Of a stretch of DNA of 64,000 nucleotides, positions 9,718 to 64,000 are shown piece by piece. Positions within the stretch are counted from its first letter, which is position 1; each line of letters begins with the position of its first letter. The notes below the pieces were generated by a model. It ran no database searches and had not been told where the DNA came from. It saw only the letters and a list, made by a program, of their open reading frames with translations. Source of the stretch: Bacteroidetes bacterium 43-93 (GTDB lineage: Bacteria > Bacteroidota > Bacteroidia > Chitinophagales > Chitinophagaceae). The DNA is taken from contig MKUO01000018.1 of assembly GCA_001897855.1 (NCBI GenBank), positions 147,513 through 211,512 on the forward strand, read 5' to 3'. The translations under genes were made by a program, and so were the position numbers.

Positions 9718-9761
9718 AATTTGTCCTTAGTTTTATTTGAGACAAATTTCAGGGTGCTTTA

Positions 9762-9777
9762 TGACAGCTGTTTGTCA
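9762..9777. promoter_or_regulatory. palindrome TGACA-N6-TGTCA, candidate operator of the adjacent HTH-WYL regulator
   Basis: inverted repeat 45-60 bp upstream of the VOC start. Confidence 0.5.
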
Positions 9778-10491: not shown

Positions 10492-10573
10492 CTTTCGGAT
10501 CTATGCCTCAAAATTAGCGAATCCACCTACATCATTTCACAAATGACTAATCCGTGAAAATTCAAGCATGTAA

Positions 10574-44780: not shown

Positions 44781-44800
44781 AGTGTTATTTTATTGGGGTT

Positions 44801-45599: not shown

Positions 45600-45604
45600 A
45601 GTGT

Positions 45605-45844
45605 CTATTTTTGAAGTTTATATTTAAGAATTTCAATATCGTCAGCATTCTTTGCGACCTCCCGCTCTACATAATCCAGTCGTTGGCCTTGCATACGGTA
45701 CTCGGCTTTGTTTTCCTGGATAGCAATCATAACATTCAGGTACAGCCTTACACCTACGCTTACACATGCGATAGCAGAAAGGATAATTGTCCAGACGAGT
45801 TTTAATGTTATACCCCTTAATTCTTTTTGTTCCACGTTTGTCAT
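45605..45844 (-). CDS. small 1-TM + coiled-coil protein (holin/antiholin-like)
   Basis: LVWTIILSAIACVSVGVRLYL TM followed by heptad-rich tail. Confidence 0.5.
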   Translation of the reverse strand: MTNVEQKELRGITLKLVWTIILSAIACVSVGVRLYLNVMIAIQENKAEYRMQGQRLDYVEREVAKNADDIEILKYKLQK

Positions 45845-45862
45845 AGTGATAGTATTTAATAT

Positions 45863-46606
45863 TTATGGGATGCCCCATTTATTGGTTGTATATGCTCTTA
45901 CGGCCGCATCATTAGGTGTACCGCCCTGGTATATATAAATACCTTTGATACTGAGACTACTTGTGTTAGTGCCTATATAACCGATGCCGATTGGCGATGA
46001 AGCTGTAGCAGTACCCACTGATCCGATGACGGAAGAAGTATTGACGGACAGTGAAGAGGAACTGCCATTCCAGCTACCTTTGAATAGATAATAAGTACTA
46101 TTGACCGGATGCAAAGACGCCAGACTAAGTGTGCCGGTATTCGCATATATCTTAAATGTGTTGGTACTACTTGCCCGTTCCACATCCATAAAAGAATTTG
46201 TGGCACCATTATCATAAAACATAATAGCCCCGTCACTATTCGCTATGATATTTACAGCTGCAACAATATAAATGGTATAGGGCTGAGACAGGGAAGCAGA
46301 CTGATACATGGCCTGTCCTGAGGATCCCTGGAAAGTAATTGCATTAGTACCATTCCAAACAGGTTTTAAGGTGGCATTAGATTGCAGCCAGTTTCTACCG
46401 TTCCCACTCTTATCATTCCATTGACTGACATTATTAGACGATTGAGTGATAGAAGATGCATCATCCGCTTCGTAATATGCCCAAAGATTAGTTGCGGGCA
46501 GTGTGGGAGAAGCTGTCGCGCTATATTTCCACCCATTAACAATTATGCGTTGTGCATGCAGATTAAAGAACGATACGCAGCACATGCTAAAAAATAACTT
46601 TCTCAT
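45863..46606 (-). CDS. LamG/concanavalin-like lectin-fold protein with Sec signal peptide
   Basis: MRKLFFSMCCVSFFNLHA|Q; YYEADDASSI..VSQWNDKSGNGRN; start overlaps fibre stop (TAATG at 46608-46604). Confidence 0.65.
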   Translation of the reverse strand: MRKLFFSMCCVSFFNLHAQRIIVNGWKYSATASPTLPATNLWAYYEADDASSITQSSNNVSQWNDKSGNGRNWLQSNATLKPVWNGTNAITFQGSSGQAMYQSASLSQPYTIYIVAAVNIIANSDGAIMFYDNGATNSFMDVERASSTNTFKIYANTGTLSLASLHPVNSTYYLFKGSWNGSSSSLSVNTSSVIGSVGTATASSPIGIGYIGTNTSSLSIKGIYIYQGGTPNDAAVRAYTTNKWGIP

Positions 46607-48852: not shown

Positions 48853-49265
48853 GGTGTTGTTACATATTGAAAGTCTATTTCTCCGGAGATCATTCCATCT
48901 CCTATTTCATATCCGCTAAAATCCAGGTAGGGTGTTTGTCCTTCCTCACCAGGCTGATCTTTCTTATTTTGAATCACACACAGCTTTGCCCATTTAAATG
49001 GTGCACCATCTACAAAAATGATGGGAGCCAATTGATTTCTAAATAAATTACTGTACACAATATTTATAGGCATATCTACTAACACATTACCCCATTGCCA
49101 GCTTATTCCATCAGCACCTTTAGCACCTTTCGGCCCCATATTGATTAATTGTATTTCAAACCTATTTCTGACAGCAGGTTGTATTTGATATACACTTCGG
49201 GCAGGCGTTTCAATTTTGATAATATTGGTACAGCCCTGTTTCACAATTACTATTCCAAAACTCAT
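48849..49265 (-). CDS. tail-region protein with short collagen-like stub
   Basis: GPKGAKGADG; ATGA overlaps on both sides. Confidence 0.5.
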   Translation of the reverse strand: MSFGIVIVKQGCTNIIKIETPARSVYQIQPAVRNRFEIQLINMGPKGAKGADGISWQWGNVLVDMPINIVYSNLFRNQLAPIIFVDGAPFKWAKLCVIQNKKDQPGEEGQTPYLDFSGYEIGDGMISGEIDFQYVTTP

Positions 49266-49600
49266 CCGTTAATATTTACTTCGCCGTTAACAATGGTTTT
49301 GATCTCATCTGCAACCTGTCTGCGAATACGGAAACAATATTTATCACACAAGTCAATACTATTCCAAAAGGTTATATCGATTGCAAACGAAGCTATCACT
49401 TCACCGGCATCCAATGTAGCGGTGAGGCTATTGGCGATTGCATAATCGCGACGATGGACATCCAGGGTAAAAGTGCAGCCATGAAGGCTTTGAACTACGC
49501 CGGTTGCATCCGTAATTTGTATATCAATATTTCCTGTGTCCTGGTAACGTAGCACAAGGGTGCTTTGCTGGCTCACGTCCAGCTCTAATTTTGATGACAT
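49262..49600 (-). CDS. BppU-N-like baseplate/fibre anchor domain
   Basis: 112 aa beta-rich; LHGCTFTLDV...YCFRI...KTIVNGEVNI pattern. Confidence 0.5.
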   Translation of the reverse strand: MSSKLELDVSQQSTLVLRYQDTGNIDIQITDATGVVQSLHGCTFTLDVHRRDYAIANSLTATLDAGEVIASFAIDITFWNSIDLCDKYCFRIRRQVADEIKTIVNGEVNING

Positions 49601-49645
49601 ATAAAAAGGGTTTAGGTTGTCTGGTTTAAAAGTGTTCCTCTGATG

Positions 49646-51535
49646 TTAATCAGTAATAATTCTCCATTTCATATTATTAAAGGCAGTCCTTGCAGTGGAA
49701 GATGCTGATGTAGGCGGGGCAGAAATAGTATTATGTGATAGATCTATCGCAAATGAATTGTATCCATAGCCTATTTTACAGTAATTGTAAAATTCATTGA
49801 TAAAATCATCTACCGCAGTGCTTGTAAGAGTATTATACGTAATCCCGGTGTAAATCAATTTTGCAAAGGGCTTATAACCAGCTGATGCCAATGATGATGC
49901 CCAACCCGGAACAATTTTCTCAATACTGCACCTATCAAGATATAAAGCCTGGAGACTGTCTTTGGCAGGCGCAAGAAACGACAAATCAAAACCAGTAGCT
50001 CCACCCAAAGCCAAATGTGTGAGACGCAGAAAGGTAAGGTTAGCCGATATCCTGCCCGTAATATTTGAGACAGCCGCTACCGGACTAAGCGAATTCCTGA
50101 TGATTTCAAAATTCACTTCCTCATCCCGATGAAATATACGTACCGCTTGTGCGCCGGTTGTCGCAAACTCGTATGCTACTGTGCATGTATTACCACTGCC
50201 GATATTAGTAAACAAATCTTCCGTACCGGACGTAGCAGCAAAGCAGGCAACATGCATATGCAGCTTACTATCAGCGTAGGTCACCTTGTATTGCATGTAT
50301 CGTTGCGATGGATAAGATGTTACAGCATTCAGAACTAACATGTTAGGGTATATCTGCAACGGAAGTGGCTGATAATGATAAAATCGCTCACCCGGTGCGT
50401 TAATAAGAAATATGTCATTACCATCACGTTCTAAAACTGTAGCGTGCCCCGCCGCCGCAATATTTGTATTAAAACTTCCCACCCATGCATCAAGGCCCAA
50501 ACTATCATCAAATACTCTGGCAAAAGAGCCTTGCGCATTTAATACTGATATCATTGTAAAATTATCTGTAATGACACATTGATTAATTGCAAAAGGAAAA
50601 TCAACAGCGGTAAATAATTTTATTCTTCGTTGCGTGAATGTGTATCCGTCGTCACTGTCTTTTTGCCTGAGTGTTACTGTGCGCCATTGTACATGCTTAT
50701 CCTCGCTGCCACTGCGTTCCAGTTTACCATCCTGCCAAACATATTCACGGCCATCTACTCTAAAATATCCATCCTTACAACATTGCAACGAACGGTTCAC
50801 TACATCTATCATGTACTCAGGCAAGCCGGTATACCCTCCTATATCCCATTTAAATACATTGTATGCTTCCGCATCCAGTGTTACAGTATTGCGGTCCTGG
50901 TCTTCAAACACAGTATAATCACCACCCGGTTCATAGCTCATGCCGTTACTTTCTATTCGGTAGGCAAACCTTGGCATTAGTTGTTCAAACAACACATCAT
51001 GTCCATTTGTTAGCTGATTATACTCTACAAGGGATGTACCCGGATGATTTGCACTTAACAAGATAGGATTGCTCCTGTAATTCAAAATATCGGTCACTCC
51101 GTTGAAATACCAGATCATATCAAAATAGATATACTTTTTCCCGGCAAGCTCAGGAATAGACGCAGGCGTGAACAAAAACTGCTCTGTATATAGCTGCTCA
51201 CCAGTTATGCCATCTACTACACCGGATAACGCGTAAGAAGATGTAAGGCTTACAACCTTTAGCAGCGTATTGCTACCTACTTCAAAGATCCGCAGCTCGC
51301 TTGGGTTAGTTACATTGGTATTATCACCTGTACGTCCGCGATGATAATGAATACATACGGGATCATTCAGTCCCAGCTTTTGATAATATTGCTCACGGAC
51401 CTGTCCCGGACGAATGGCATCTATCTGCAATGCGTCGCCAAAGGCGGGATAGCCCCATCGATCACCTGGAAATACAGCATCAACTTCTGCAAAACGATAA
51501 GGGTTTATAGACGGAAACCGTACTATTATTGACAT
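49646..51535 (-). CDS. tail tip / receptor-binding-like protein with C-terminal LRR-like segment
   Basis: position after hub; LTFLRLTHLAL, LQALYLDRCSI, ITYNTLTSTAVD. Confidence 0.5.
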   Translation of the reverse strand: MSIIVRFPSINPYRFAEVDAVFPGDRWGYPAFGDALQIDAIRPGQVREQYYQKLGLNDPVCIHYHRGRTGDNTNVTNPSELRIFEVGSNTLLKVVSLTSSYALSGVVDGITGEQLYTEQFLFTPASIPELAGKKYIYFDMIWYFNGVTDILNYRSNPILLSANHPGTSLVEYNQLTNGHDVLFEQLMPRFAYRIESNGMSYEPGGDYTVFEDQDRNTVTLDAEAYNVFKWDIGGYTGLPEYMIDVVNRSLQCCKDGYFRVDGREYVWQDGKLERSGSEDKHVQWRTVTLRQKDSDDGYTFTQRRIKLFTAVDFPFAINQCVITDNFTMISVLNAQGSFARVFDDSLGLDAWVGSFNTNIAAAGHATVLERDGNDIFLINAPGERFYHYQPLPLQIYPNMLVLNAVTSYPSQRYMQYKVTYADSKLHMHVACFAATSGTEDLFTNIGSGNTCTVAYEFATTGAQAVRIFHRDEEVNFEIIRNSLSPVAAVSNITGRISANLTFLRLTHLALGGATGFDLSFLAPAKDSLQALYLDRCSIEKIVPGWASSLASAGYKPFAKLIYTGITYNTLTSTAVDDFINEFYNYCKIGYGYNSFAIDLSHNTISAPPTSASSTARTAFNNMKWRIITD

Positions 51536-51687
51536 TTTCTAAAAAAGGGTTTATGGTTATAGTTTATTTTTATGGCAATGGCATCTACTATTGCCATAAA
51601 AGACAATCAGCTATTTATCTAATGTTGTTAAAGGATCAATCAGTAAATATGATTTACTTTTAAGCAGACCACATCACAACATTTCCT

Positions 51688-52284
51688 CTATTTCTTGCCT
51701 GGTTCCGGCTGATTTAATATATCACTTATGATATTAACGTTCTGCAATACCTTAAATTGGGGATCGAGATATTCGTTCATCTCTACATCATTTGTGATGA
51801 TATCTCCTGAGAAATATATTTTGTACTGAACATAGTAATAAGCAAATTTCTGAGCATCCGCATTTTTAGCAGCTTTATCAAGGCTATCTTTTTCTTTCTG
51901 ATCCCTTGCGGTATACTTAAGGTAGTTCTCTGCCCGTGTCAAATCTTTTTGGTATGCATTCTCTTTGTAAGCAGGCACTTCCATGTGGTTTCGATGATAG
52001 GAATCAATTTCGGCAGAATCATCTTTAGCTTGTGCAACAGCCTCCTCGTATCCGTAATGATAACTCTCTATAGCGGAGATGGCCTCTTTAATACGATTGT
52101 TTATTGCCTGCTTTTCCGTGTATTTATCTACTTTCAACACTACGATACTATCTATCCGTTGATGTTTGCCCGCATCCAGGCCTGTAGAATGAAATTGTGT
52201 CAGGCTATCTTTTATTTTTTCTTCGGTACTTGTATTACCGCAGGCAGATAGTAAAACACAAACTGGTAAAAGGTATTTATACAT
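51688..52284 (-). CDS. lipoprotein moron inserted in the tail operon
   Basis: MYKYLLPVCVLLSA|C lipobox; flanked by intergenic gaps, unlike the coupled neighbours. Confidence 0.7.
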   Translation of the reverse strand: MYKYLLPVCVLLSACGNTSTEEKIKDSLTQFHSTGLDAGKHQRIDSIVVLKVDKYTEKQAINNRIKEAISAIESYHYGYEEAVAQAKDDSAEIDSYHRNHMEVPAYKENAYQKDLTRAENYLKYTARDQKEKDSLDKAAKNADAQKFAYYYVQYKIYFSGDIITNDVEMNEYLDPQFKVLQNVNIISDILNQPEPGKK

Positions 52285-52337
52285 AATTGGCTTTTTGATG
52301 GCTAAAAATAACACAGTTTATCTAACGCGAAAAAAAA

Positions 52338-54494
52338 TCAATAGATCAGTTTACTTAGATCATTTACAGGAGATGACAATAACTCAAAATCAAACAACTG
52401 CCTGCGACCATAGTTAATGCCAACACTCAAAACAAAACCATATAGATCTATATTCCGGTAATTGAATTTAAACACACCATAAGGGTTAGACTCCAAAATA
52501 TCAAAAAGATCTTTGGGTGGAATTCCCTTAAACTTGAATATATAAGGCTGGTATAATTGCTGCCCAATCAATGTATTTGCTTCTATATCCGCTCGCTCTA
52601 CTACCGTTACTGAACCCGGGAAGGTACTGTACGTTGCTTTATCCTGTTCTGCCGTTTGAAACTTCAAAAAGGAACTGGCATATCCATGCATTATAGATTT
52701 AAACACACCTGCGCAGCGCATGATATTTCTTGCAGGGGTAAGTGCTGCATTATAAGCACGTTCCGGGAAGTCGACACCTTTTATCACTGCGGTCCTATCC
52801 AGGTCATAAATACCATCCGTTGCAGTACTATTAATGTACACCAGAAAATTCCTGTTTGTGTCATCGCGCTTGGTATTATTAACAGCGACCGTATTATCTA
52901 AGTTTTGTAACCGCACCAGTTCAATATAATTCATGGCAGCATAAAACGGACTTACCATATCCATCTTATTTTTATTACTATCAACATATTTTGTATTGGG
53001 CAACGTACGGGTCACTTTGTCATTATATTCATTTACTTTGTTTATATCATCAATACCGTCACCACCTTCATATCCACACTCAACTGTGGTAGCCATGCTA
53101 TCAGGGTCTGCTATGATCTCCAGGTCTGTTATGGAAGATATCTCACCTAATACAGTATTCTTATCGTAAAAGCTGCTAAGGTGTTCTACCACTAACTGAT
53201 TATTCTTTACTCCAAGCCCCGCCTGGTGCCTTGCAATAATATCTTTTATCATATCAGATAACTTTACCTTAATTACAGGTGAACTTGTATACGTCTTTAA
53301 CGATTGCTCAGAAAGCATAATCGTATGAAGCGGTATGGCATCATAATACAATCTGGAATTTAACGACTGGGAGGTAAATCCTGTTTGTAGTTTGTATTTT
53401 CCATCCGAGAGCTTTTGTGTCAGTTTGTCCATTACCTGCCACCATCTATATCCTTTTCTTGCGTTCAAAGCTCTGTCAGTGCTTTGTGCACTGTTAGTCT
53501 CACAATTGATGTAAAAAGCTTTTTCGCCCGATGGGTTTATAATCACAGCGCAGGACCTGGTACCGGATGTATCGGCAAGTTTGATCTCAGCGATAAACGT
53601 ATTGCCTGCCGCAAGGTTTAATTTTATAGAGCCTGCAACATTAGTTGTCAAAGAGGCGAAAGGAGCAAGCACGGGCGAAGTATAAATAGCAACTTCGTTC
53701 AACAACGTACTGCTATCGGGCTGGCCAGACCACACTCTAAAATAAACAATAGCACTGTTATTACCGGTAGCAGACGAAACTTCCAGGTCAAAATCATACT
53801 GCACATTGATCGTAGTATTATAAATGGCGGTAAAATTGGGCACCTTGATAGCGGGAAAATAGTCAGCGTCTGAGCTCTGTCCGTAGCCTGCTGCTATATC
53901 CCCCTCCTGCCTTACATAAGCAAGCCGTAGCACAACAGGACTAAAGTGCTCCGTTAACCCCACTGTAGATAGAGCTGCAGATGACAAATAACGGTATGCA
54001 GTTTTTAATATAATGCCATCCATGTTCACCCTTACACAGTCCGCATCATCTATAGGTACTTCATAATCAGTACTTCCGTATGCATCCACCAGTTCTGCCA
54101 GCCCGCCCTGCATAGTGTTTACTTCTACCTGGTCGCGGGTAGAATGAAAAGTAGCGAAATCAATAGTATCTACAAACTGGGTAATATACTCCTGCGTAGT
54201 GTCATCCAGTATCTCAATCACCAGCTCGCAATAAGCGGTAATGCCACCTTGTGTATAATAAAGGTATCGCATGATAGCCGCGCCATCCTTCACAAATTTT
54301 ATTGTAGAGGATTGCTTCCTGAATATTCCTTTATAAACACCATTCCTCACCCACGAGCATTGTATCTCGTCCCAGTTAGCAACACTCTGAAGTATGGGGG
54401 TTTTAGTGGCAATTGTCGTTACCTGCGAACCAGCAACAGCCAGGTAAGCAGTGTCGTTCGTTCTCAAATAAAACCGGTATGGCGTCTTTTGCAT
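52338..54494 (-). CDS. tail tip / baseplate hub-like protein
   Basis: 718 aa immediately after the tape measure; beta-rich. Confidence 0.55.
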   Translation of the reverse strand: MQKTPYRFYLRTNDTAYLAVAGSQVTTIATKTPILQSVANWDEIQCSWVRNGVYKGIFRKQSSTIKFVKDGAAIMRYLYYTQGGITAYCELVIEILDDTTQEYITQFVDTIDFATFHSTRDQVEVNTMQGGLAELVDAYGSTDYEVPIDDADCVRVNMDGIILKTAYRYLSSAALSTVGLTEHFSPVVLRLAYVRQEGDIAAGYGQSSDADYFPAIKVPNFTAIYNTTINVQYDFDLEVSSATGNNSAIVYFRVWSGQPDSSTLLNEVAIYTSPVLAPFASLTTNVAGSIKLNLAAGNTFIAEIKLADTSGTRSCAVIINPSGEKAFYINCETNSAQSTDRALNARKGYRWWQVMDKLTQKLSDGKYKLQTGFTSQSLNSRLYYDAIPLHTIMLSEQSLKTYTSSPVIKVKLSDMIKDIIARHQAGLGVKNNQLVVEHLSSFYDKNTVLGEISSITDLEIIADPDSMATTVECGYEGGDGIDDINKVNEYNDKVTRTLPNTKYVDSNKNKMDMVSPFYAAMNYIELVRLQNLDNTVAVNNTKRDDTNRNFLVYINSTATDGIYDLDRTAVIKGVDFPERAYNAALTPARNIMRCAGVFKSIMHGYASSFLKFQTAEQDKATYSTFPGSVTVVERADIEANTLIGQQLYQPYIFKFKGIPPKDLFDILESNPYGVFKFNYRNIDLYGFVLSVGINYGRRQLFDFELLSSPVNDLSKLIY

Positions 54495-57230
54495 TTATCG
54501 TTTATTGTGGTGATTGATGTATGTGATCCTTGATGCAGCTCTTTTCTGAACAGTAACTATCTCCCCATACCTTACGGCAATGGTTGTTTCTGTCTTATTA
54601 TTTACAGCATTTACTATTCTATTGATGCCAGCATTAAATGCGGCCGTATTATCGCCGTATTGCGGAGATAGTGTTGGCAATGCAGACAACATAGTGGGGA
54701 GATCCTGCAAATGCATCTTATGCAATGGTATTACCCGCGCACCGTGCGACAGATCAGGTATTAGTGTGGGTTGTGATACCCAATAGCCTGGTTTTCCTTT
54801 TTCCTTTACATATTCAGGCTTATTCTTTTCACCCACTATTGCAGGACCGCCCGGGTGGGCGTCTGTACCCTCGGCATATTGCGGAGTGCTGGTACCGGCA
54901 AGCGCGCTGATCACGGTAGCCATATATGCGGCTACAGCTGCTCCCGTGCCAATACCTATAACACCACCCTTTTCTACCTCTTCTGCAATACCTACATATA
55001 GTGCAATCGTAGCCTTTAGTATCGCCATGCCTTTTTCGTAATTCGCCTGCCTGCTTTTGCGCGCAGCCTCCTGTTGTGCAATACCGGCCTGCCGTTGCTG
55101 TGTACGTGCATCTATATCTGCAAGACGCTGGTCTTTTTCTTGCTGGGTAAGTATGCTGTTACTAACTGCCTGCTTTTCCAGATCTGACTGTTTATTAATA
55201 TCATCCCCTTGTTTTTGCAAGCGCGCCAGGTCTTTATCCGTTTTGTTCTTTGCTATAGAATCCAGAGCATCAAACACGCTACCAACGATCTGCTGTAATG
55301 ACTGCATATCTGCAGCTTGCTTTTCCTGTGCAGCTTTTGAGTCTTCTACAATCTTTTCATTCGCATCCCGGGTACTCATTACCCTTGCATCGTCAAGCTG
55401 GCTTTGTAACTTCTTCCTGTCAGAGGCAGACATATCTTCATTACCCAATATCTCCCGCAGGTAACCGATCGTGTCGCCAAGATTCTTTTTGCCATACTTG
55501 TCATTTAGCGCACTTACACTTTCCTGGTACTGCGCGTAACTGATCTCTTTATTCTTCAGACTGTCTATCAGTGCCTGCTCATCCGCCGCGTATAGTTGCT
55601 TATTTGCGTCCGCAATAGCCTTTAGAGCTTTCTCATGTGCTTTGGCCTGCAAACCATCAATATCAGGGGTAATGTAGACAGGTACGGTTTCGCTATGAGC
55701 ATCAGATGCACCGGGAAGAGATACTGAGTGTTTTGAAGAATTAGTAACAGAAGCTTTAGGATTATTTGTTGGCTTAGGTACAGAAGTGCGTTTTGAATTA
55801 TTAGCAAGCTTGTTATTAGCCGCCAGTGTAACTTCCAAATCGTCATTAACCTGGTTAATATCTCTTTTCAACTGGTTAATTCGGCCATTAAAAGCCTTAA
55901 CATAAGTATCAGAAGTATTTATAGATGACGCAATAAGCTGTGCTTGTTTTCGTGCTTCCTGCTCTGTAACACCTGTTACCTGTTTGATAACATCTATTAA
56001 TTCTTTACTACTTGCAAGTTCTCTTCTCGCCCATTCTGGTTTGTACTTCCCTAAAAGAAAATTATATTGTTCATTAGCAGTATTACTCAAATATTCATAA
56101 GCCCCTTTTTCAACTTCAAGGTCTTGAACTCTGGCCGCTGCCACTTTCTTTTCCTGTTCATTAATAACAGAAATCGCAGCTCCCTGCGCTTTAAGCAATT
56201 CCAGTTTATGTTCCTCCTTCTGTGTATTACCTTCTACCTGGTTTGCCTGTCCTCTTATCCTGTTTATCTCCGACTGTTTTGAGATCATAGCTGCAAGTGA
56301 ATCCCCTAAACCTTTTAAAGCCTCTTTTGTTCGCCTGGCCTGCTCCTCATCCTGCTTCATAGAGTTGGTAAAGAAACCCAATGCTGTTACCGCTAAATTT
56401 ATAATACCCGGCAAACCCGTAAACGACCCTCCAATAGCAGTCAATATACTTCCCCAGCTCTGCCCTTCTGACCGTGCCTTTACTACATGCTCTGCAAAAT
56501 CAGCAATATGACCGGAGAGTGCTTTGATAAATTCGCCAGGGCTTTGTGCCAGTTTGGGTAATTCGCCCAACATCTTATTAAACTGCCCACTCACCCCTTT
56601 ACAGGCATCTACCTTGCTTTGATAAGACGCTACCTGGGCACCTGCCGCATTTAATTGTGTACCGAGGTTTTGCGCATGGCCGATGGCATCTTTGGTTTTA
56701 GTATTAAAGCCATCGGTAGCTGTACCTGCCAATACCTGTGCTGCTGCCAGTTGTTTGGCATTATCGCTGGCATCTTTGTATTGCTTCTTTAGCTGCTCAT
56801 AGCTGGCATTGAGGTTGCGTGCATTGGCAGCCTCCTGCGCCGCTTGTGCTGCAAGGCGTTCGCGCTCTTTGTTCAATGCGCCGATGGCTGTAGCCAATGC
56901 GGCGGCACCATCAGTTTCATCTTTCCTGTTCTTACTGCTTTGTGCGGTAACAGCGGCGATGGCATCTGCAAGCGTCTGCTCCTGCTGCTTTACCGCCAGT
57001 AGCTTTTCCAGCGATGCCTTGTGGGCGTCTACTGCTGTGGTGGCTGCTTTGATGGCGGCCGTACCTTGTGCCATGGAATTGCTATCTGTAACAAACAGTT
57101 CGCTGGCGCGCATTTGTTTAGATGCTGCGGTAATGTGTGCTACCGTATCGTCTATGATGGCGATCACCTGCTGCTGTTGTGCCTTTATCTCCTCTACACC
57201 AAATAGCTGGTCTAATTTATCGGTGGGCAT
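54495..57230 (-). CDS. tape measure protein
   Basis: 911 aa, Ala/Gln/Lys-rich helical; central and C-terminal hydrophobic Gly/Ala segments; YAEGTDAHPGGPAIVGE motif. Confidence 0.85.
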   Translation of the reverse strand: MPTDKLDQLFGVEEIKAQQQQVIAIIDDTVAHITAASKQMRASELFVTDSNSMAQGTAAIKAATTAVDAHKASLEKLLAVKQQEQTLADAIAAVTAQSSKNRKDETDGAAALATAIGALNKERERLAAQAAQEAANARNLNASYEQLKKQYKDASDNAKQLAAAQVLAGTATDGFNTKTKDAIGHAQNLGTQLNAAGAQVASYQSKVDACKGVSGQFNKMLGELPKLAQSPGEFIKALSGHIADFAEHVVKARSEGQSWGSILTAIGGSFTGLPGIINLAVTALGFFTNSMKQDEEQARRTKEALKGLGDSLAAMISKQSEINRIRGQANQVEGNTQKEEHKLELLKAQGAAISVINEQEKKVAAARVQDLEVEKGAYEYLSNTANEQYNFLLGKYKPEWARRELASSKELIDVIKQVTGVTEQEARKQAQLIASSINTSDTYVKAFNGRINQLKRDINQVNDDLEVTLAANNKLANNSKRTSVPKPTNNPKASVTNSSKHSVSLPGASDAHSETVPVYITPDIDGLQAKAHEKALKAIADANKQLYAADEQALIDSLKNKEISYAQYQESVSALNDKYGKKNLGDTIGYLREILGNEDMSASDRKKLQSQLDDARVMSTRDANEKIVEDSKAAQEKQAADMQSLQQIVGSVFDALDSIAKNKTDKDLARLQKQGDDINKQSDLEKQAVSNSILTQQEKDQRLADIDARTQQRQAGIAQQEAARKSRQANYEKGMAILKATIALYVGIAEEVEKGGVIGIGTGAAVAAYMATVISALAGTSTPQYAEGTDAHPGGPAIVGEKNKPEYVKEKGKPGYWVSQPTLIPDLSHGARVIPLHKMHLQDLPTMLSALPTLSPQYGDNTAAFNAGINRIVNAVNNKTETTIAVRYGEIVTVQKRAASRITYINHHNKR

Positions 57231-57981
57231 ACTCCTCCTGTTGTTTTTGGTTTAGCAAACGTTCTGCATGTGCGTTGTATCTCTTTAGCGATATGCAATA
57301 GTCATACACGGTCATCTCCTCTGCAAGGCGCGTTACGGGGGTGTTATACCCTTCAAACTTGCGCAGCTCTGCCAGTTGCTCCAGGAAATAATCTTCGGTA
57401 ATGATTGTGTTGCTATTGCTCCTGTTATGATCGTCCTGCAATTCTTTTTCCAGCTGTTCTTTCTTTACCTCCCAGCCTACCAGTTCGTTGCTGATGTATT
57501 GCAGATCGTCTTGCAGGGTTGCGGGTGTTAGCGGGTAGTCAAACCCGTCTTCCTTCAGCTCTGCCACAATACCTGCATGGTAATGCGTAGCCAATGCCTG
57601 CATGTTCAGCCGTACCCGGTTGATGAAGAGTATATAAGCGTTCAGCAATTGTTGCCTTTCGCCTGCCTGTAGAGCGGCACCGTTGCCCGATGCATCATAG
57701 TACTGCAACTTCAGCGATTGCCATGCGGCAGCCAGTTGTGCCTCTGTAGGGTCTCCTGCCAATACCAGTGCATCCATATTGCCTTGTGTATAGCATTTGA
57801 TGAAGGCAGAGAGGCGCACCATGCGTATATCATCTGCTATCAGTGCAAAGGGTTCTTCTTCATGCGGCTTTGCTTCATTTTGGTAATGCTTCAGCAATGC
57901 CTGCGATACCAGGCGGATGCCCAGTTCTATTTGTTGTGCCTGCGTGCGTGCGGGTTTGTTCTTTTTATGTTTCGGTTTCAT
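57217..57981 (-). CDS. tail assembly chaperone-like protein
   Basis: helical, directly upstream of and overlapping the tape measure gene. Confidence 0.5.
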   Translation of the reverse strand: MKPKHKKNKPARTQAQQIELGIRLVSQALLKHYQNEAKPHEEEPFALIADDIRMVRLSAFIKCYTQGNMDALVLAGDPTEAQLAAAWQSLKLQYYDASGNGAALQAGERQQLLNAYILFINRVRLNMQALATHYHAGIVAELKEDGFDYPLTPATLQDDLQYISNELVGWEVKKEQLEKELQDDHNRSNSNTIITEDYFLEQLAELRKFEGYNTPVTRLAEEMTVYDYCISLKRYNAHAERLLNQKQQEEYAHR

Positions 57982-57988
57982 GGTATTA

Positions 57989-58237
57989 CTATTTATAACC
58001 TATGCCGGTAAGCTCGCTGATGCGATGTAACAAGGGCGTGCGCACATAGGTATCAAACAAATAAGCATTGGGGCCTGTGGGTGCATAAGGGGTTTGCTGC
58101 AATACATCTGTAAATGGCAGTGCAAAAGGTGTCGTAGTGTTATCTATATGCAGGCCACTATCTTCTACCGCTGTGGCTACTGCTTCATGCACATCTACTG
58201 CCTGCAGCCTCTTCTTCATTTCTAATGCGTATGCCAT
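57989..58237 (-). CDS. short tail-completion-like hypothetical protein
   Basis: 82 aa between tube and chaperone genes. Confidence 0.35.
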   Translation of the reverse strand: MAYALEMKKRLQAVDVHEAVATAVEDSGLHIDNTTTPFALPFTDVLQQTPYAPTGPNAYLFDTYVRTPLLHRISELTGIGYK

Positions 58238-58251
58238 AAGGGAGATAAAGA

Positions 58252-58274
58252 CAGGGCGCGGCTTACACGCCCTG
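58252..58274 (-). terminator. intrinsic terminator inside the late operon
   Basis: CAGGGCG-N9-CGCCCTG followed by TCTTTATCT on the minus strand. Confidence 0.6.
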
Positions 58275-58289
58275 CTTTGGTTTTATTGG

Positions 58290-58580
58290 TTAAGGGTTTA
58301 CAGGGGCTTCGCTATGGGTATCGCTACCTTTGCGTGTATTGTTCTTCTGCTTCTTGCCGGTAGTTTCTTCCGGTGCATCTGTTTTGGTGCTTTGCATACA
58401 TTTGTTGTACACTTCTGTCAGCGCCTGCGTTCTTTCTTCGGGCTGCAGGTGGGCGAAGTATTGCTGCCCTGCCATTGCCAGCCATTCTTCAAGAGGCATA
58501 GCAATTACAGCCGGTATGTAAAAGTTCACCGCATCAATACCACTATCCCATGCAAGGTGTTCTGCGTGTTGCTTCATCAT
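58290..58580 (-). CDS. small hypothetical (tail chaperone-like) protein
   Basis: TAATG-coupled to the tail tube gene; charged C-tail. Confidence 0.5.
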   Translation of the reverse strand: MMKQHAEHLAWDSGIDAVNFYIPAVIAMPLEEWLAMAGQQYFAHLQPEERTQALTEVYNKCMQSTKTDAPEETTGKKQKNNTRKGSDTHSEAPVNP

Positions 58581-59548
58581 TAGGATGCAGTTATGGTCAA
58601 TACATTAGATTCGTGGTACTTAACACCCAGGCCTGCCAGGGTCGCAATATCTGCCTGCTGCAGGTATAGCTTATCGCCCGCGGTACCGTATGCACCTGTA
58701 GTAGTGCAGGTAAGGGTAAAGGCTACCTTTTCCGTGCCTTCTGATTTGATGGTAACACCCGATATAGTTACGGCTGCACCACTGGCATTTACCAGCTTCC
58801 AGGCTGTTACCACATTTAGTATGGCAGCATACTTAGACACCAGGTTCACCTGTCCGTCAATGCTCTTCAGCGCTATATCAAACACACCCGGTGTGCTGCC
58901 TGTAGTAATGTTCTCGAGCACCGTATCTTCTACACCGCGCAGGCCCTGCAACGGGTGAAAGGGGTTGAAGCCAAGATCTGTATGCTTTGCTTTCTTCTTC
59001 TCGTCGATATCAGCCAATGCTATACGCAGCTGGTACTTCACAGCCTTGCCCTGGTCGGGTTCTTCAAAAGGCAATACCTCCAGCTGGTGAATGGTAAGCC
59101 CACAGATACCGGTATCGGTAGTAAGGTGTTGCAGGTTCCAGTTCTCATCTATAAAGGCAACGAGGTAGCCCTTGCGCAGGTGAAAGTTTTGCAGCGACTG
59201 GTATTCGGCCCAGGTACATTCCACTACAAAGGTCATATCCCACGATCCTTTGTCGGTAAAGGTCTTGAGCTGTCCGCGTGTTTCGCGTGCAGGTGCCTCC
59301 CCGTTAGATGTAGGCATGTGCAGCTTGTGAATGAAGAAGGCGCGGCTGCCATAGGTTTGGTTGGTAAGCAAAGACTGCAATGCGGTTTTGCGCGTGGCAG
59401 CAGTTGCCAGGTCGGCCGTGCTTAGCAGGTCTGCATCGTATGGGTGCAGTATAGCGCCGCGTATCTTACCGGGGTCAAACTTACCGGTACCGGCACTGTA
59501 ATTGCCTGCAGCATTTTGTGTTACTTTATTAATTACGCTCTGTGGCAT
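58580..59548 (-). CDS. major tail tube protein
   Basis: GTGKFDPGKIRGAIL, VAFIDENWNL; position after neck genes; extra beta-rich C-terminal domain. Confidence 0.65.
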   Translation of the reverse strand: MPQSVINKVTQNAAGNYSAGTGKFDPGKIRGAILHPYDADLLSTADLATAATRKTALQSLLTNQTYGSRAFFIHKLHMPTSNGEAPARETRGQLKTFTDKGSWDMTFVVECTWAEYQSLQNFHLRKGYLVAFIDENWNLQHLTTDTGICGLTIHQLEVLPFEEPDQGKAVKYQLRIALADIDEKKKAKHTDLGFNPFHPLQGLRGVEDTVLENITTGSTPGVFDIALKSIDGQVNLVSKYAAILNVVTAWKLVNASGAAVTISGVTIKSEGTEKVAFTLTCTTTGAYGTAGDKLYLQQADIATLAGLGVKYHESNVLTITAS

Positions 59549-59576
59549 GTTGTTTAAAAAGGTTTAGGTATTGTTC

Positions 59577-60131
59577 TTAAAATCTTGATCGTAAAAAAGG
59601 ATCGTAGGTGCATTGCATATTGTAGCGGAAGCAATGCCATGGATGGGTATCAAACTTCACCATATCTGTTTTGCTAAGGCCGGGATATTCCTGCAGCACT
59701 CTTTCTATCCCTGTCACTTCGCTCTTCATAATGAACTGGTGCATCTCGTACTTCAGCATCTCCAGCACATCGCGGCGCACTTCTACATCGGCACGGGCCA
59801 TTTGTGGTTTTATCTTCGCCAGGTTGATGAAGAACACCAGGTGTACATCTGCCGTCTGCGATTTATAATTATCTATAGTGATGTTGCTGCCAATACCAAA
59901 GAAAGAGTGTACGGCCACACTGTCATCCAGCAATAGTTCTTTATAATCGTTGTTGTTGGTAAACACCTCAGGCACGTAGCCTGCATCTTTGCGATTGCGA
60001 TACACACGGCCGTAGCAGTTATACTCATCTGCGGCAAGCTCCCATACATCCTGCAGGTAATCGTACAGGTCTTGCTGCATATCCTGTATCCATACATCTA
60101 TACCCACCGGGCGATATTTAGTATATATCAT
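59577..60131 (-). CDS. neck / tail-terminator-like protein
   Basis: 184 aa, ATGA overlap with the upstream gene; directly before the tube gene. Confidence 0.45.
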   Translation of the reverse strand: MIYTKYRPVGIDVWIQDMQQDLYDYLQDVWELAADEYNCYGRVYRNRKDAGYVPEVFTNNNDYKELLLDDSVAVHSFFGIGSNITIDNYKSQTADVHLVFFINLAKIKPQMARADVEVRRDVLEMLKYEMHQFIMKSEVTGIERVLQEYPGLSKTDMVKFDTHPWHCFRYNMQCTYDPFLRSRF

Positions 60132-61228
60132 ATTGCAGGGTTTTGGATGGTGATGGACGAGGATCTTTTATAGAAGGCATCGCGCAGGCGTTTTACCTCT
60201 TGCAGTATCTGCCCTTTGAGGCCCGTGGTATAAGGATTATCGGCAGTGGTTACCTGGTTCAGATCGCGGTAGAGGACGGCTAGGTTCTCTTTACCCATAC
60301 GCTCGCGGGCATTGCCCCGGGCACTGTTCTGCACTATCTCTATCGCCCTTGCCGCCATCATCAGCCCTTGCAGGTTATCAAACAGGTGCGCATTGTTCAC
60401 AATGGTTTCCGTCATATCGCGATAGCTGCCCAGCTCTGCATTCAATCCATACATGCCTGCGCTGCAACCATAGGTCTCCCTGTCAAAGTCTGCACCATTA
60501 GCTTTCGACTCAAACGATACTCCGCCAAACACATGGTAACAATTGGCAGCTACACTATAATCGTAGGCACGCACCGCACCAAGATCATCCTGGAAATAAC
60601 CGAGAAACCATTCGCCGCCCTTTACCACATCGGTAGCGTTGTTAATGGCATAGTTGAGCGCTACAGATGTTTGGCTATTGCCCTTTGCCGCTACCTGCCA
60701 CTTCTTTATATATGGAACATCGGTAAGCACATTATCTACCGTATCGGTGCCATTGGTTAGGGAGTGAAAGAGGTAGAGCGGGAAGCTTACATCTGCATTA
60801 AAGAAGAGTATCGCATTCTTCAGCAGTACACCATAATCACCATCGCTCACTTTAATGCGTATGCCGCAGAAGTTGCCGTTATTGGCTACAGGGTTATGCG
60901 CTGTGTTTACCGCTTTACGGAACAGTAAACCACCACCTACATACTGCGGTGCATCAAACACTGCATTGAGTGCAGACATAATAACCGACCTGCGGAGCTG
61001 TACCAGGTAAGCATTAAAATCATCTTCAGTAATATCCGCATCAGGCTGGCAATCGTACAGGTTCTCTATCAGCAAAGAGGCGTGAAAGCTGCCATCATTA
61101 TAATACCTGCCGCTTTCGCTTTGTGTGTTGTCGCAGTCTACCACATCATAGCCTTTGGTGGTGGGTTGCAGCCAGCCAATACGCTCCATTGCAGGCAGCA
61201 CAAGGGCTGCGTTATATCCGTTCGTCAT
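60128..61228 (-). CDS. head-tail adaptor-like protein
   Basis: follows the capsid gene; helical N- and C-termini around a beta-rich core. Confidence 0.4.
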   Translation of the reverse strand: MTNGYNAALVLPAMERIGWLQPTTKGYDVVDCDNTQSESGRYYNDGSFHASLLIENLYDCQPDADITEDDFNAYLVQLRRSVIMSALNAVFDAPQYVGGGLLFRKAVNTAHNPVANNGNFCGIRIKVSDGDYGVLLKNAILFFNADVSFPLYLFHSLTNGTDTVDNVLTDVPYIKKWQVAAKGNSQTSVALNYAINNATDVVKGGEWFLGYFQDDLGAVRAYDYSVAANCYHVFGGVSFESKANGADFDRETYGCSAGMYGLNAELGSYRDMTETIVNNAHLFDNLQGLMMAARAIEIVQNSARGNARERMGKENLAVLYRDLNQVTTADNPYTTGLKGQILQEVKRLRDAFYKRSSSITIQNPAI

Positions 61229-61255
61229 GGTTTATGGTTTAGGGAGATGTATGTA

Positions 61256-62281
61256 TTAAGCACCTACGCTTATAAGATGTACCGGGCTATCACTCGCTGC
61301 AGACAGTGGTGGTACACCCCAGCCTACCCATGCAGATATTTCCCACTGATCCAGCACATCCTGCACGCCGCCGCCATTGGCGCTTTCATCGCCACGCTTG
61401 CTATACTTAGATACATCAAACACAAAGCCCGAACCGAACGGATCTAACAAAGTGCCAAACATACCTACTTCGTTATCGCCTGCATCCATGCCTTCTTTAT
61501 TCAGCGGATCGTTCCAGTTAAGTGCTTTGAACGTACCTGCAGGCATGATGAAAGCAGCACCGTCTGTATAGCTTGCAGAGATCACTTCTGATGTTGCCGC
61601 CATACGAACACCCTGCATTTGGGGCGCAAGGTTGGTACTGTTGCCCGCGCCTTGCCACATGGTACGCTCCAGCGATGGCCACAGTTGCAGATCGGGGATC
61701 ATATCCAGGTCGCCACGGTACAGGCGGCCACGCATAAAGGTTTTAGAGAGCTGTGTAAAATAGTCGAGCTTAGCAGCGGGTATTTCCAGTGCATGGTTGG
61801 TACTGTTCCACGTACCGGCGCCTGATGTTGCAGGGCTGGTAAGCTGGCAGGTGTGGGCTGCAAGGTAGGCAAGGCCCAGGGTTTCCATGCGGTCTTTAAG
61901 ATTATCAACAGCCTGTTCTATCTCGTGCTGAAACATGATCTTAGCGCCAACGGCATTGTTCTGTGCCTGCTTGCGGCTCATGTAGAATGTTTCGGTAAGA
62001 CATTGGTAGGCGAGGTTCAGCGTACCGCTATCGCCTTTGGTGCCTGTGTGCAGTGCTACCTTTGCGGTGCCACTGCCGGGTGCGCGTTGTTTCAGGTATT
62101 TTACTTCTACCACGCGGCTTTCTGCTGTCTTCAGCGATTCCCAGTCGGGCAGGGTGTATTGGGCATTGTTCAGTGCCATCGTCAATACGGGACGTTCTTT
62201 TCTACGCAGTTCGGCTTCGTTGTATTTTGTGGCGAGCGTAGTTTGGGCATTAGTCAACAGACTGGATGCATAATTTGCCAT
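61256..62281 (-). CDS. major capsid protein-like (HK97-fold inferred)
   Basis: 341 aa from MANYASS; HTGTKGDSG loop, spine-helix-like QHEIEQAVDNLKDRMETLGLAYL; first gene of the late operon. Confidence 0.6.
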   Translation of the reverse strand: MANYASSLLTNAQTTLATKYNEAELRRKERPVLTMALNNAQYTLPDWESLKTAESRVVEVKYLKQRAPGSGTAKVALHTGTKGDSGTLNLAYQCLTETFYMSRKQAQNNAVGAKIMFQHEIEQAVDNLKDRMETLGLAYLAAHTCQLTSPATSGAGTWNSTNHALEIPAAKLDYFTQLSKTFMRGRLYRGDLDMIPDLQLWPSLERTMWQGAGNSTNLAPQMQGVRMAATSEVISASYTDGAAFIMPAGTFKALNWNDPLNKEGMDAGDNEVGMFGTLLDPFGSGFVFDVSKYSKRGDESANGGGVQDVLDQWEISAWVGWGVPPLSAASDSPVHLISVGA

Positions 62282-62308
62282 TTTTAAGAGGAAAATTGAG
62301 AAAGATAC

Positions 62309-62394
62309 CGGGCACCGCCCGTAGATATTTGGAGTACCACTCCGTGTGCTTTGGGGAGACATCCCCTTAGAAAAGAACAAACAACCACCGGCTG
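62309..62394 (-). promoter_or_regulatory. structured 5' leader: four short hairpins, three with GGU triloops
   Basis: CAGCC-GGT-GGTTG, GGGGA-TGTC-TCCCC, GGAGT-GGT-ACTCC, CGGGC-GGT-GCCCG. Confidence 0.65.
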
Positions 62395-62404
62395 TATTGT
62401 GATA

Positions 62405-62412
62405 CAAAATTA
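62405..62412 (-). promoter_or_regulatory. host-type sigma70 -7 element for the capsid-like gene
   Basis: TAATTTTG matches TAnnTTTG, 124 nt upstream of the ATG. Confidence 0.65.
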
Positions 62413-62525
62413 GGAAAAACTTTTCTTCTGAAAAAAAATTATTTTTTCTTCAGTACGCATATCATTACCTCTAAAACCTTTACAGTAGCGGATTTTAAGG
62501 GATAAAACTTTTTTAAAAAATATCT

Positions 62526-63038
62526 TTACTCCTGATTTTCTTCAGAATACGTTAGCTGTGTTAATGTATTTTTGTCATAAACAAAAAGGAACTCACAGGG
62601 AGTCGGATATTGCTTTACCTCTGCGGTAGCGAGTACATAATACATACCATCCCTGTAGATGGGCTTCTGTATGCTGATGACCATATCGCCTGCTTTGGGT
62701 TGCAGCTTTTGTTCTGCGAGCGGATGCCGCTTAATGGTCTTTGTCCACTTTTTAGGAGCAGGCATTTTCTGCAGGTTCAGTTCTTTGGTAATGTTCTCTA
62801 TAGCAACGCTCAGATCATAATTAGGAGCTACATCCTGGTTATAAAAAAGATCGGCAGACTTGTTGCGGCCAAACTCGTGTACTACCGGTATGCCATCGAG
62901 CGTTGGTAATTTATTGACCAGGAAGCTAAGCACAGAATCCTGCAGGCCGGTATCTGTGGTAAGCTTAGGTTTTGTTTGCGCTATAGATGTACCGGCGCTT
63001 AGCAACAGCGCTATCGCGGCTATGTATATCTTTCTCAT
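62526..63038 (-). CDS. secreted hypothetical protein
   Basis: signal peptide MRKIYIAAIALLLSAGTSIA|Q. Confidence 0.7.
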   Translation of the reverse strand: MRKIYIAAIALLLSAGTSIAQTKPKLTTDTGLQDSVLSFLVNKLPTLDGIPVVHEFGRNKSADLFYNQDVAPNYDLSVAIENITKELNLQKMPAPKKWTKTIKRHPLAEQKLQPKAGDMVISIQKPIYRDGMYYVLATAEVKQYPTPCEFLFVYDKNTLTQLTYSEENQE

Positions 63039-63168
63039 TGATCCTCTTTTTATGGTACTTTATGAAGTTAAACAAAGGATGCGTAAAAGTTTTATATTAC
63101 CTTTATCCCTGCTATATAAGACAAACGTTTTCCCTTTATTATCATTTTCAGACAAAGTTTCTACCCGA

Positions 63169-63996
63169 ATGAAGTTCACTCCGTTTTTATTCATCCTGCT
63201 GCTATGCTTTAAAACACAAGCGGCCGATAAATTATCGAAAGATCAGCTTGCCTATATTGCCGATAGCCTCAAGGCCGAGGGGCTGATGCTCTACAACAGC
63301 GAGCATTGCTCCTGGGTGGCCAGCGACCTGTTTATGAGCAGCTATACAGGCAGCCAGGAAGATATTGGCGGCTATTGCTCTTATATAGACGGCAGCGGCA
63401 TGAAGTGTATTTTTACCAGCAAGCCCTACCCCGATAGCGTGATAGGCACGGTTATATTTAAAGATGGTATAGACCCGGAAACAGGCATCGTAAACCTGCA
63501 GCACCGTGTATTAACAGCCACAGAACAGCAATATGTAGGTATGCGCAGAGCCGTGCAGCAGATGACCAATGCATCAGACGGATTTTTTAAATACTACGAC
63601 AATTGCAACTTCAACATAGCGCCACTGATAACGGGCGATTATCGCCGGGTATATGTGATCACCAGCACAGCAAAAGAAGGGGTAATACTGTATGGTAACG
63701 ATTACAAGATTACGCTGGATAAAGACAATAAGGTGATAGAGAAAAAAGCCCTGCACCGTACGCTGTTACCAATAGATCCTAAAGAAGATACATTAGAAAA
63801 CTATAAAGGAACGGTACATACTCATATATCTGAGTATAACCTGTTCATCACGCCTACCGATATTTGCACTTCTATGCTATACATGCCACCGGGTAGTGGT
63901 AATAGTTGTGTTACCGTTTCTAAAGATTATATCAGCATCTGGAACTGCGATGCTGCAACACTGGTAATAGTACCTAATCCGGGAAAGAAGGAGTAG
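63169..63996 (+). CDS. secreted hypothetical protein
   Basis: signal peptide MKFTPFLFILLLCFKTQA|A; start moved from 62860 to 63169. Confidence 0.7.
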   Translation: MKFTPFLFILLLCFKTQAADKLSKDQLAYIADSLKAEGLMLYNSEHCSWVASDLFMSSYTGSQEDIGGYCSYIDGSGMKCIFTSKPYPDSVIGTVIFKDGIDPETGIVNLQHRVLTATEQQYVGMRRAVQQMTNASDGFFKYYDNCNFNIAPLITGDYRRVYVITSTAKEGVILYGNDYKITLDKDNKVIEKKALHRTLLPIDPKEDTLENYKGTVHTHISEYNLFITPTDICTSMLYMPPGSGNSCVTVSKDYISIWNCDAATLVIVPNPGKKE

Positions 63997-64000
63997 CAAT

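Follow-up and report, generated by a model that had tools for sequence, protein, structure and literature searches.

Hairpins in RNA leaders that serve as protein-binding sites are already known as a kind, and several described systems share traits with the locus treated here. In the nut sites of lambdoid phages, small promoter-proximal stem-loops of 5 bp (boxB) stand in the leader of a phage transcript and are read by the N protein, which recognises the loop and leaves the stem sequence free, and the specificity of loop and partner switches between related phages. However, a nut site combines one boxB with a boxA in early operons, and the boxB loop is a GNRA-like pentaloop, whereas the array described below consists of 2-5 copies with NGU triloops, placed directly before the ATG of a capsid gene in phages of the host phylum Bacteroidota. 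A single-stranded stretch of the new leaders, TCACAACATT, we take to be loosely reminiscent of boxA, and no N-like gene was recognised within ±10-15 kb around the capsid gene. In this line, the ops elements of RfaH, the opsX elements of UpxY and the target of LoaP are also found in the 5′ leaders of long, horizontally acquired operons. They are short, G-C-rich near-palindromes (GCGGTAGC or YGCGNAGCR, to be compared with RGY-NGT-RCY here), which fall into cognate specificity classes and lie at a similar distance from the start codon: ops elements stand in 5′ leaders whose start codon is at +41/+42, and LoaP has been proposed to recognise a nascent RNA hairpin (PMC11685472). Despite a similar size and G-C content, the apex of the new hairpins matches neither GGCGGTAGnnTG nor YGCGNAGCR (consensus quoted in PMC11685472), and the stems are longer, covary as RNA and come in several copies. 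Moreover, UpxY is encoded by the first gene of its operon, whereas no NusG paralog was found next to the array.

Other likenesses concern the output of control. In the 5′ UTRs of CsrA/RsmA targets, a conserved loop motif is repeated in several short hairpins at a spacing that a dimer can bridge, and the output is translation or mRNA stability, as proposed here; three relatives of the locus even have GGGAU loops. On the other hand, the loops under study (GGU and UGUC) lack GGA, and neither a Shine-Dalgarno sequence nor a site overlapping the ribosome-binding region is present. A 2026 preprint describes Bacteroides as lacking both Hfq and CsrA (PMC13370968). As for RbpB of Bacteroides, this protein binds single-stranded regions and not such hairpins. 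The coat operators of MS2, Qbeta and PP7 and the autoregulation of P22 scaffolding protein offer a further parallel, in which a virion protein would sense its unassembled pool through an RNA hairpin, and the array is always physically linked to scaffold and capsid genes. Coat operators differ in being single hairpins that cover the start codon in ssRNA phages, and the capsid protein studied here bears no signature of the loop class. We know of no RNA target for the P22 scaffolding protein, nor of any HK97-fold capsid protein that binds RNA. Finally, the iron-responsive element (IRE) is likewise read by a protein in a 5′ UTR and has an NGU triloop, a C-G closing pair and a 5-bp upper stem, some relatives here being exactly C-AGU-G; but the bulged C of the IRE is missing, IREs belong to eukaryotes or to bacterial aconitase, and the resemblance is one of shape only. 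A full-text literature search returned no description of the element. An Rfam 15 scan of the leader (E ≤ 10) gave three chance-level matches far below gathering scores, in agreement with the original prediction, which had recognised no riboswitch, and ten homologous loci (E ≤ 1) gave one irrelevant match. The family, its tandem architecture, its restriction to capsid genes, its host phylum and its many loop classes appear to be undescribed, and the nearest cultured phage is no closer than 29% in capsid identity.

In the window, which is the whole 64-kb stretch of DNA that was analysed, the leader comprises 245 nt of the minus strand between a 170-aa ORF (62526-63038) and ATG 62281. Its parts, together with two downstream features, are the following.

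62412-62405, minus strand: -7 box of the Bacteroidota sigma-A type, TAATTTTG (from the sequence)
62394-62382, minus strand: hairpin 1, core CAGCC-GGU-GGUUG (GGT triloop scan and MFE fold)
62366-62353, minus strand: hairpin 2, GGGGA-UGUC-UCCCC, with a tetraloop (sequence and MFE fold)
62343-62331, minus strand: hairpin 3, GGAGU-GGU-ACUCC, the canonical family unit, followed by AAA (sequence, MFE fold and triloop scan)
62321-62309, minus strand: hairpin 4, CGGGC-GGU-GCCCG, the C-G-closed variant and last hairpin (sequence, MFE fold and triloop scan)
62282-62308, minus strand: unstructured A/U/C-rich stretch, putatively for ribosome loading, with no Shine-Dalgarno sequence (sequence and MFE fold)
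61256-62281, minus strand: gene of the major capsid protein, 341 aa, HK97 fold (phrog_7231 and AF2 model)
58251-58275, minus strand: internal terminator-like hairpin, about 4 kb into the operon (terminator scan)

All four stems are present in the ViennaRNA MFE fold, and the coordinates originally given for the stems, the -7 element and the ATG proved exact on the coding (minus) strand when checked in the sequence. Three hairpins had been credited with different stems, the same GGU loop and the same spacing; the common loop stands, while the spacing is equal only approximately, with GGU loops 51 and 22 nt apart (28, 23 and 22 nt when hairpin 2 is counted). Hairpin 1, whose core includes one G.U pair, extends in the MFE fold to the full imperfect stem ACAA-U-ACAGCC GGU GGUUGU-UUGU (62400-62377), a clamp-like structure in the 5′-proximal position. 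Hairpin 2 is atypical and departs from the family consensus with its tetraloop, and the 13-mer of hairpin 3 is found again in many homologous leaders. From the end of hairpin 4 to ATG 62281 there are 27 nt, as compared with a family norm of about 40 nt, and the ribosome-loading stretch is both shortened and diverged.

That the downstream gene encodes a capsid protein, as had been assumed, is borne out by a match to phrog_7231 (E 9.8e-30) and by an AlphaFold (AF2) model (pLDDT 78), whose top PDB matches are HK97-fold phage capsids and encapsulins only, at probability 1.00. Its true start is ATG 62281, because the homologs begin there, 117 of them with 338-350 aa starting with M-A/P-N-Y; the in-frame alternatives ATG 62362 and TTG 62407 were rejected for the same reason. 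Some gene callers use ATG 62362, which lies within hairpin 2 (P0001, 368 aa). These longer ORFs are artefacts of the open frame, and by extending the capsid ORF into the leader the callers hide the element in annotations. The phage cluster of the window has the capsid gene at one end and a GH19 lysin (44217-44780) at the other, two divergent signal-peptide proteins are encoded upstream of the leader, and neither terminase nor portal nor scaffold genes were found anywhere in the 64 kb. The window copy is a prophage remnant without phage regulatory genes. Another locus with a related capsid, L001, has decayed too.

The significance of the array in the window was addressed with 20,000 dinucleotide-preserving shuffles of its leader. 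Only seven 5-bp GGT-triloop hairpins exist on the minus strand of the whole window, and three of them fall within these 86 nt. Shuffled leaders contained 0.83 hairpins on average and reached or exceeded the observed five in 46 of 20,000 cases, and three hairpins with a common loop never occurred (0/20,000), while the total folding energy of the leader is ordinary (z = -0.70). A family covariance model built without the window (R1), a single-hairpin model of little information content, placed hairpin 3 as the top match of the whole window (22.2 bits, E 0.009), and gave hairpins 4, 1 and 2 only 9.6, 5.0 and 2.7 bits. With one of its four hairpins individually significant against this model, the window array is partly degenerate, and these weak scores, together with a loading stretch of 27 nt, fit a decaying prophage remnant.

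Capsid homologs were gathered from genome, viral and metagenome contigs, their sources being Chitinophagaceae (prophages included), MAGs of other Bacteroidota and viral contigs of about 45-50 kb. Hairpins of this type, 2-5 per leader, stand at the same place before about 45 homologous capsid genes (23-68% amino acid identity), and the window leader, with three GGU hairpins, a -7 box and a capsid gene, belongs to this family. In the core set of 40 distinct leaders (capsids 36-68% identical), nearly all have 2-5 hairpins, most often three. Where the triloop hairpins of these leaders have stems of 4 bp or more, the loops are GGU (63), UGU (19) and AGU (9), the remainder being AT-rich noise, and none of the three is among the top loops of CDS controls taken from the first 220 nt of coding regions. 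Aligned on their loops, the hairpins share an apex R-G-Y / N-G-U / R-C-Y on a stem of 4-7 bp, with G-C as second pair in 77%, U-A (71%) or C-G (22%) as closing pair and an A-rich 3′ flank (CAAA) across the family. The heptamer GYGGTRC has 69 occurrences in the 9.2 kb of leader sequence, as against 37 in 216 kb of surrounding sequence and two on the opposite strand of the leaders. As these copies were selected by the 7-mer and not by pairing, stem pairs 3-5 were left free, and they are paired at 0.91, 0.78 and 0.75 in the leader copies compared with 0.24-0.49 elsewhere.

A close-up view of the orthologous last hairpin, for which MAFFT aligned the final 70 nt of the 40 leaders unguided and the structure was supplied by hand for counting, revealed covariation at all five core pairs: UA 20/CG 12, GC 30/AU 5, AU 17/GC 16, GC 20/AU 6/CG 1 and GC 10/CG 5/UA 3. 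None of 500 shuffles matched the covariation score, and control partners slid by 1-3 columns gave far lower covariation; RNAalifold, run on the gappy alignment of the 40 leaders, predicted no consensus pairs. The original prediction had seen selection on structure in the shared loop, and the comparison of homologous upstream regions strongly supports this view, since both conservation and covariation are present: the stems show covariation around a retained loop, and the hairpins keep to one strand and one locus and are transcribed.

The architecture around the hairpins is also conserved. The first GGU hairpin of the homologs is often nested in an outer GUCA..UGAC stem, the spacers between hairpins are rich in C and A and poor in G, loops follow each other at 16-34 nt across leaders, and the leaders measure some 100 to 190 nt in all. 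In the majority of NGU leaders the distance from the end of the last hairpin to the ATG is 36-45 nt (mode 40), and in the octaloop classes described below it is 22-33 nt; in nine NGU-class leaders the hairpin is found at -51 to -86, where a variant last hairpin has perhaps escaped detection. Between the last hairpin and the ATG runs an unstructured, conserved stretch with the consensus TCACAACATTYTTT..CACA..TTTAAATT, in which TCACAACATT..TTTAAATT follows the last hairpin in the family.

The array is confined to one gene. Of 35 clusters of at least two such hairpins in 608 kb, 31 lie in capsid leaders, and one of the four others (L069) is also upstream of a capsid homolog. Throughout 633 kb of ±10 kb context, clusters are restricted to capsid leaders except for one weak pair of GGU hairpins in L134 that looks like chance. 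Three RGTGGTACY units made an uninformative probe because of the many coding repeats for Gly-Thr, but GTGGTAC..GGAGTGGTACTCC, the working probe for viral and genome collections, retrieved true arrays only upstream of this capsid family, the other matches being chance occurrences inside high-GC coding regions. The array precedes the capsid gene only and not the terminase/portal operon, and many distant relatives of the Polaribacter-phage-like type have no hairpins, their scaffold gene abutting the capsid ATG. In 34 of the 40 leaders a TAnnTTTG-like box (≤1 mismatch) lies ahead of the first hairpin at a distance of 2-62 nt and often has TTTG/TTG about 19 nt before it, and an intrinsic terminator that closes the scaffold operon often stands upstream of the capsid promoter. 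The -7 box and the preceding terminator therefore indicate that the capsid gene has its own promoter of the sigma-A type, with the hairpins at the start of the transcript.

In this regard, transcription was observed in five root-metatranscriptome runs of a near-identical relative, whose contigs cover the capsid gene and the leader. Their leader-side ends, at 62366, 62369, 62382, 62407 and 62488, always leave hairpins 3 and 4 within the transcript, and RNA is absent from about 62410 to 62525 in four of the runs, the fifth (X26) reaching 62488. Being low-depth assembled contigs, these data establish transcription and do not map the start site. In keeping with the place in the transcript that the hairpins had been assigned, no RNA contig of the five runs starts downstream of them. 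Each palindrome has an asymmetric centre, which is NGT on the coding strand without exception, and G.U outnumbers A.C at stem positions 1, 3 and 4 by 7 to 1 (small numbers). Both observations point to an element acting as RNA of the coding strand. An intrinsic terminator or attenuator was considered and rejected, the family having an A-rich 3′ flank with no U-tract and transcripts that run through; a terminator scan flags hairpins 1 and 4 of the window owing to their T-rich tails.

Despite the common place and architecture, the loops themselves differ among lineages, in at least seven classes, and the copies within one leader agree in their loop but not in their stems. Most common is GGU, the class of the window, and UGU/AGU characterises about ten leaders. 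The others are GGU closed by U.G (L025, L029), GGC (L298), the pentaloop GGGAU (L008, L032 and L070 only), the octaloops AAGGURCU (L296, L305) and AAGAYRSY (L295, L293), AUUGUYG (L303, with a capsid only 23% identical) and WUC (L001). In each locus the class-specific hairpins are confined to the capsid leader, and the 3′ half GGU-R-C-Y is common to triloop and octaloop classes. The classes largely track the capsid tree, yet switches occur inside close clades: at 68% shared capsid identity, the window has GGU, L053 has AGU/CGU and L001 has WUC. Free divergence of the stems combined with uniform, jointly changing loops suggests a sequence-specific partner acting in trans and co-evolving with the array, and concerted switching of this kind would be hard to explain by thermodynamics alone.

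Altogether, the reading that we favour, with a probability of about 40%, takes the array to be a multivalent operator through which an RNA-binding protein gates translation or stability of the capsid mRNA. Both the protein nature of the partner and an output at the level of translation or stability are our inference. In such a mechanism, 2-5 stem-loops with a common apical motif, arranged in tandem close to the promoter and followed by an unstructured, SD-less stretch for ribosome loading, would be bound by a sequence-specific RNA-binding protein, probably dimeric or oligomeric, and the occupancy of the hairpins would set the amount of capsid protein through translation initiation, mRNA lifetime or both. 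Candidate binders may be the adjacent scaffold or capsid protein, an early phage regulator or a host factor. The operator is favoured because of the distance of the last hairpin, the conserved unstructured stretch, the spacing and the capsid-only placement. A loop spacing of 16-34 nt suits a dimer or oligomer, the array precedes only the gene whose product is needed in the largest amount, and a link to translation is suggested by the position of the last hairpin, 22-45 nt before the ATG in most leaders of every class, where it would abut the 5′ edge of the 30S footprint. Since it usually lies just outside this footprint, simple occlusion is not assured. Moreover, the remnant operon is transcribed without phage regulators, and therefore the element is not strictly needed for transcription, and its effect may be activating or repressing.

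The array might also be explained in ways that need no RNA-binding regulator. Neutral palindromes arising by chance would account for the unexceptional folding energy of the window leader and for the weakness of three of its four hairpins against the family model, but this reading is contradicted already by the comparative data, as array and covariation are kept across capsids down to 23-36% identity, and, with three same-loop hairpins in 0/20,000 shuffles, it deserves practically no credence. Palindromes bound at the DNA level, as duplex or cruciform, by a late regulator or a recombinase would agree with the fact that every unit is an inverted repeat and with the operator-like appearance of the L001 units (GCGGTATCACCGC). 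Such sites are nevertheless very improbable, given that the arms vary freely while their pairing is kept, that NGT is always on the coding strand (69 copies versus 2 opposite), that G.T pairs are tolerated and A.C pairs are not, and that the region is transcribed. A protein-independent role in cis is conceivable as well, in which the hairpins shield the 5′ end and break up single-stranded leader RNA, protecting an abundant capsid mRNA from 5′-end-dependent RNases and from Rho loading. The first hairpin, 2-33 nt after the -7 box and often clamped by the outer GUCA..UGAC stem, would be well placed for this purpose, the spacers are C/A-rich and G-poor, and the element is kept and transcribed in the remnant. 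What a mere shield leaves unexplained is the invariant loop G-U, the conserved G-C second pair, the strand-specific apex and the concerted switching of loops in all copies of a leader, and to our knowledge NGU triloops are not among the especially stable loop motifs; we consider it decidedly unlikely.

Two further readings keep the specific partner and change its nature or its target. The hairpins could load a processive antitermination complex, recruiting an N-like, LoaP-like or RfaH/UpxY-like factor to RNA polymerase either as nascent RNA or through the 9-nt apex as a non-template DNA (ntDNA) mini-hairpin, so that the structural operon of roughly 18 kb is transcribed through internal terminators; the original prediction had likewise named an antiterminator needed to pass the terminator within the operon. 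The promoter-proximal position on a long operon fits well, and switching of the loop class has parallels in N-boxB and in cognate UpxY-opsX pairs. The apex RGY-NGT-RCY is similar to the ntDNA hairpin of E. coli ops (GCGGTAGC) and to the YGCGNAGCR of Bacteroides, and the last hairpin ends at about -40, to be compared with the +41/+42 of ops elements (PMC11685472). In 5 of 20 loci a terminator is located between +3.7 and +4.8 kb, and one of these is that at 58251-58275, which follows a putative major tail gene (family f6, taken for a tail gene from its position, with no family match). These same terminators are present in only 25% of loci, however, and RNA contigs span the one at 58251-58275 in a remnant without phage regulatory genes. 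Covarying stems of 5-7 bp are too long for an ntDNA hairpin in the transcription bubble, the apex is not an exact match to either ops consensus, and the array stands before the capsid gene and not before the terminase/portal operon. Moreover, among the best 25 of 39 Pfam and the best 25 of 118 PHROG families, no NusG, sigma, antiterminator or RNA-binding family was found in 110 ORFs upstream of the terminase. No such family appeared among the structural neighbours either, and NGN/KOW domains were absent from the same 110 ORFs (best 25 of 39 Pfam families) and from 10 structural-module proteins; a host paralog is possible. In our judgement antitermination, although rather unlikely, is the main rival of the operator. 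The loops could instead pair with an RNA, such as a phage sRNA, the 3′ end of a tRNA (UGGU:ACCA) or rRNA, after the model of the RNA-based immunity of P4 or P1. The c4 RNAs of P1/P7 and the CI RNA of P4 have heteroimmune variants, which the lineage-specific loop alphabets resemble, and the octaloop classes offer 8 nt for pairing. Nonetheless, no complementary repeat or ACC-loop hairpin was present within ±10 kb on either strand, nor was a complementary RNA partner found in 8-19 kb of each of four octaloop-class loci; loops of three nt are too short for stable kissing, UGGU is not free because its Y-R closing pair covaries, and an RNA partner is highly improbable.

Returning to the multivalent operator, the search for its binder centred on the neighbourhood of the array, since cognate pairs travel together in mosaic phages and the cis-linked scaffold and capsid proteins are thus candidates. 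In the neighbouring structural genes no RNA-binding domain was recognisable with Pfam and PHROGs, and no residue or alignment column of the capsid protein tracks the loop class. A basic helix of the scaffold protein has three sequence types that follow the loop class, a signal rejected as confounded, the types also following phylogeny. Comparing identity within and between classes singled out no family except terL, where the signal amounts to two terL types only, and extending the loci by means of the terminase gained new loop classes and no regulator. A more specific form of the operator, which we regard as possible but tentative, is that the array represents the RNA half of rapidly co-evolving, mutually orthogonal RNA-protein pairs, of at least seven loop classes, that would couple capsid synthesis to the state of assembly in Bacteroidota phages with dsDNA genomes. 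Its binder would have a novel RNA-binding activity and may be the scaffold or the capsid protein. Nothing supports an RNA packaging tag, another role initially suggested for these hairpins.

Post-transcriptional control is poorly understood in Bacteroidota, and a simple cis element that is kept across dozens of phage lineages with specificity variants provides ready-made bait for a new RNA-binding regulator, for which the loop classes and the compensatory stems constitute a set of natural mutants. Pairs of hairpin and binder could further be used as orthogonal RNA tags. Should a NusG paralog or an N-like factor turn out to be the partner, processive antitermination would be extended to the phages of Bacteroidota. 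Should a virion protein take this role, we know of no earlier case in which a defined RNA operator places an HK97-type capsid gene under autogenous control coupled to assembly.

The phage genes of the window form a cluster on the minus strand, followed directly past the lysin by a host-type gene; these features, together with a hairpin inside the cluster, are as follows.

44217-62412, minus strand: phage cluster, from the capsid gene to the GH19 lysin
58251-58275: terminator-like hairpin of 10 bp with a weak U-tail, after the putative major tail gene (family f6)
40879-44142: protein of 1087 aa; it has Ig-like domains and, at the C-terminus, a T9SS sorting domain

This T9SS-domain protein is a marker of the host flank and assigns the host to Bacteroidota. 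Since genes for terS, terL, portal and scaffold are absent from the whole window, and two divergent signal-peptide genes lie upstream of the capsid-gene leader (62526-64000), the cluster looks like a prophage remnant. Despite this appearance, it is transcribed in root metatranscriptomes. The hairpin at 58251-58275 is crossed by RNA contigs from two runs, and 5 of 20 relatives have a terminator at the equivalent point of the operon. At the promoter, one RNA contig (run X26) runs on past the -7 box for about 80 nt in the upstream direction (window 62420-62488), possibly by read-through or from a second start, and the other four end at or below 62407. Within the tape-measure gene, metatranscriptome contig X18 skips 698 nt (window 55721-56420), so that in a relative this gene is shorter.

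The closest genomic relative, L372 (the contig of locus L001), is decayed too. In its stretch 641-10999 terL is a fragment of about 130 aa, the portal gene is missing, and about 7 kb separate a scaffold fragment from the capsid gene, whose leader carries WUC loops (GCGGU-AUC-ACCGC) in place of GGU. In some phages among the homologous loci L118-L139, variable small genes, such as one for a 147-aa phrog_10066 protein, are inserted after the scaffold terminator and ahead of the capsid promoter, at what looks like a moron insertion site.

The scaffold proteins of loci L003-L071 bear a basic helix at about residues 60-85, in three sequence types that match the loop class, that is, the hairpin loop common to all copies in one leader. 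The type GExKGKELAAKAFKKKF goes with GGU and GKxAGIEIAxKxIAKKF with WGU, and GExEAxxTxVKEhxKKL is found with GGGAU, U.G-closed GGU and GGU/GGC leaders. This match is confounded with phylogeny.

In the window, the leader (62281-62407) is an open reading frame continuous with the capsid gene. The ORF listing starts the capsid ORF at TTG 62407 (383 aa), and a protein in the public databases, P0001 (368 aa), has its start at ATG 62362, within hairpin 2. Such start calls conceal the leader in annotations.
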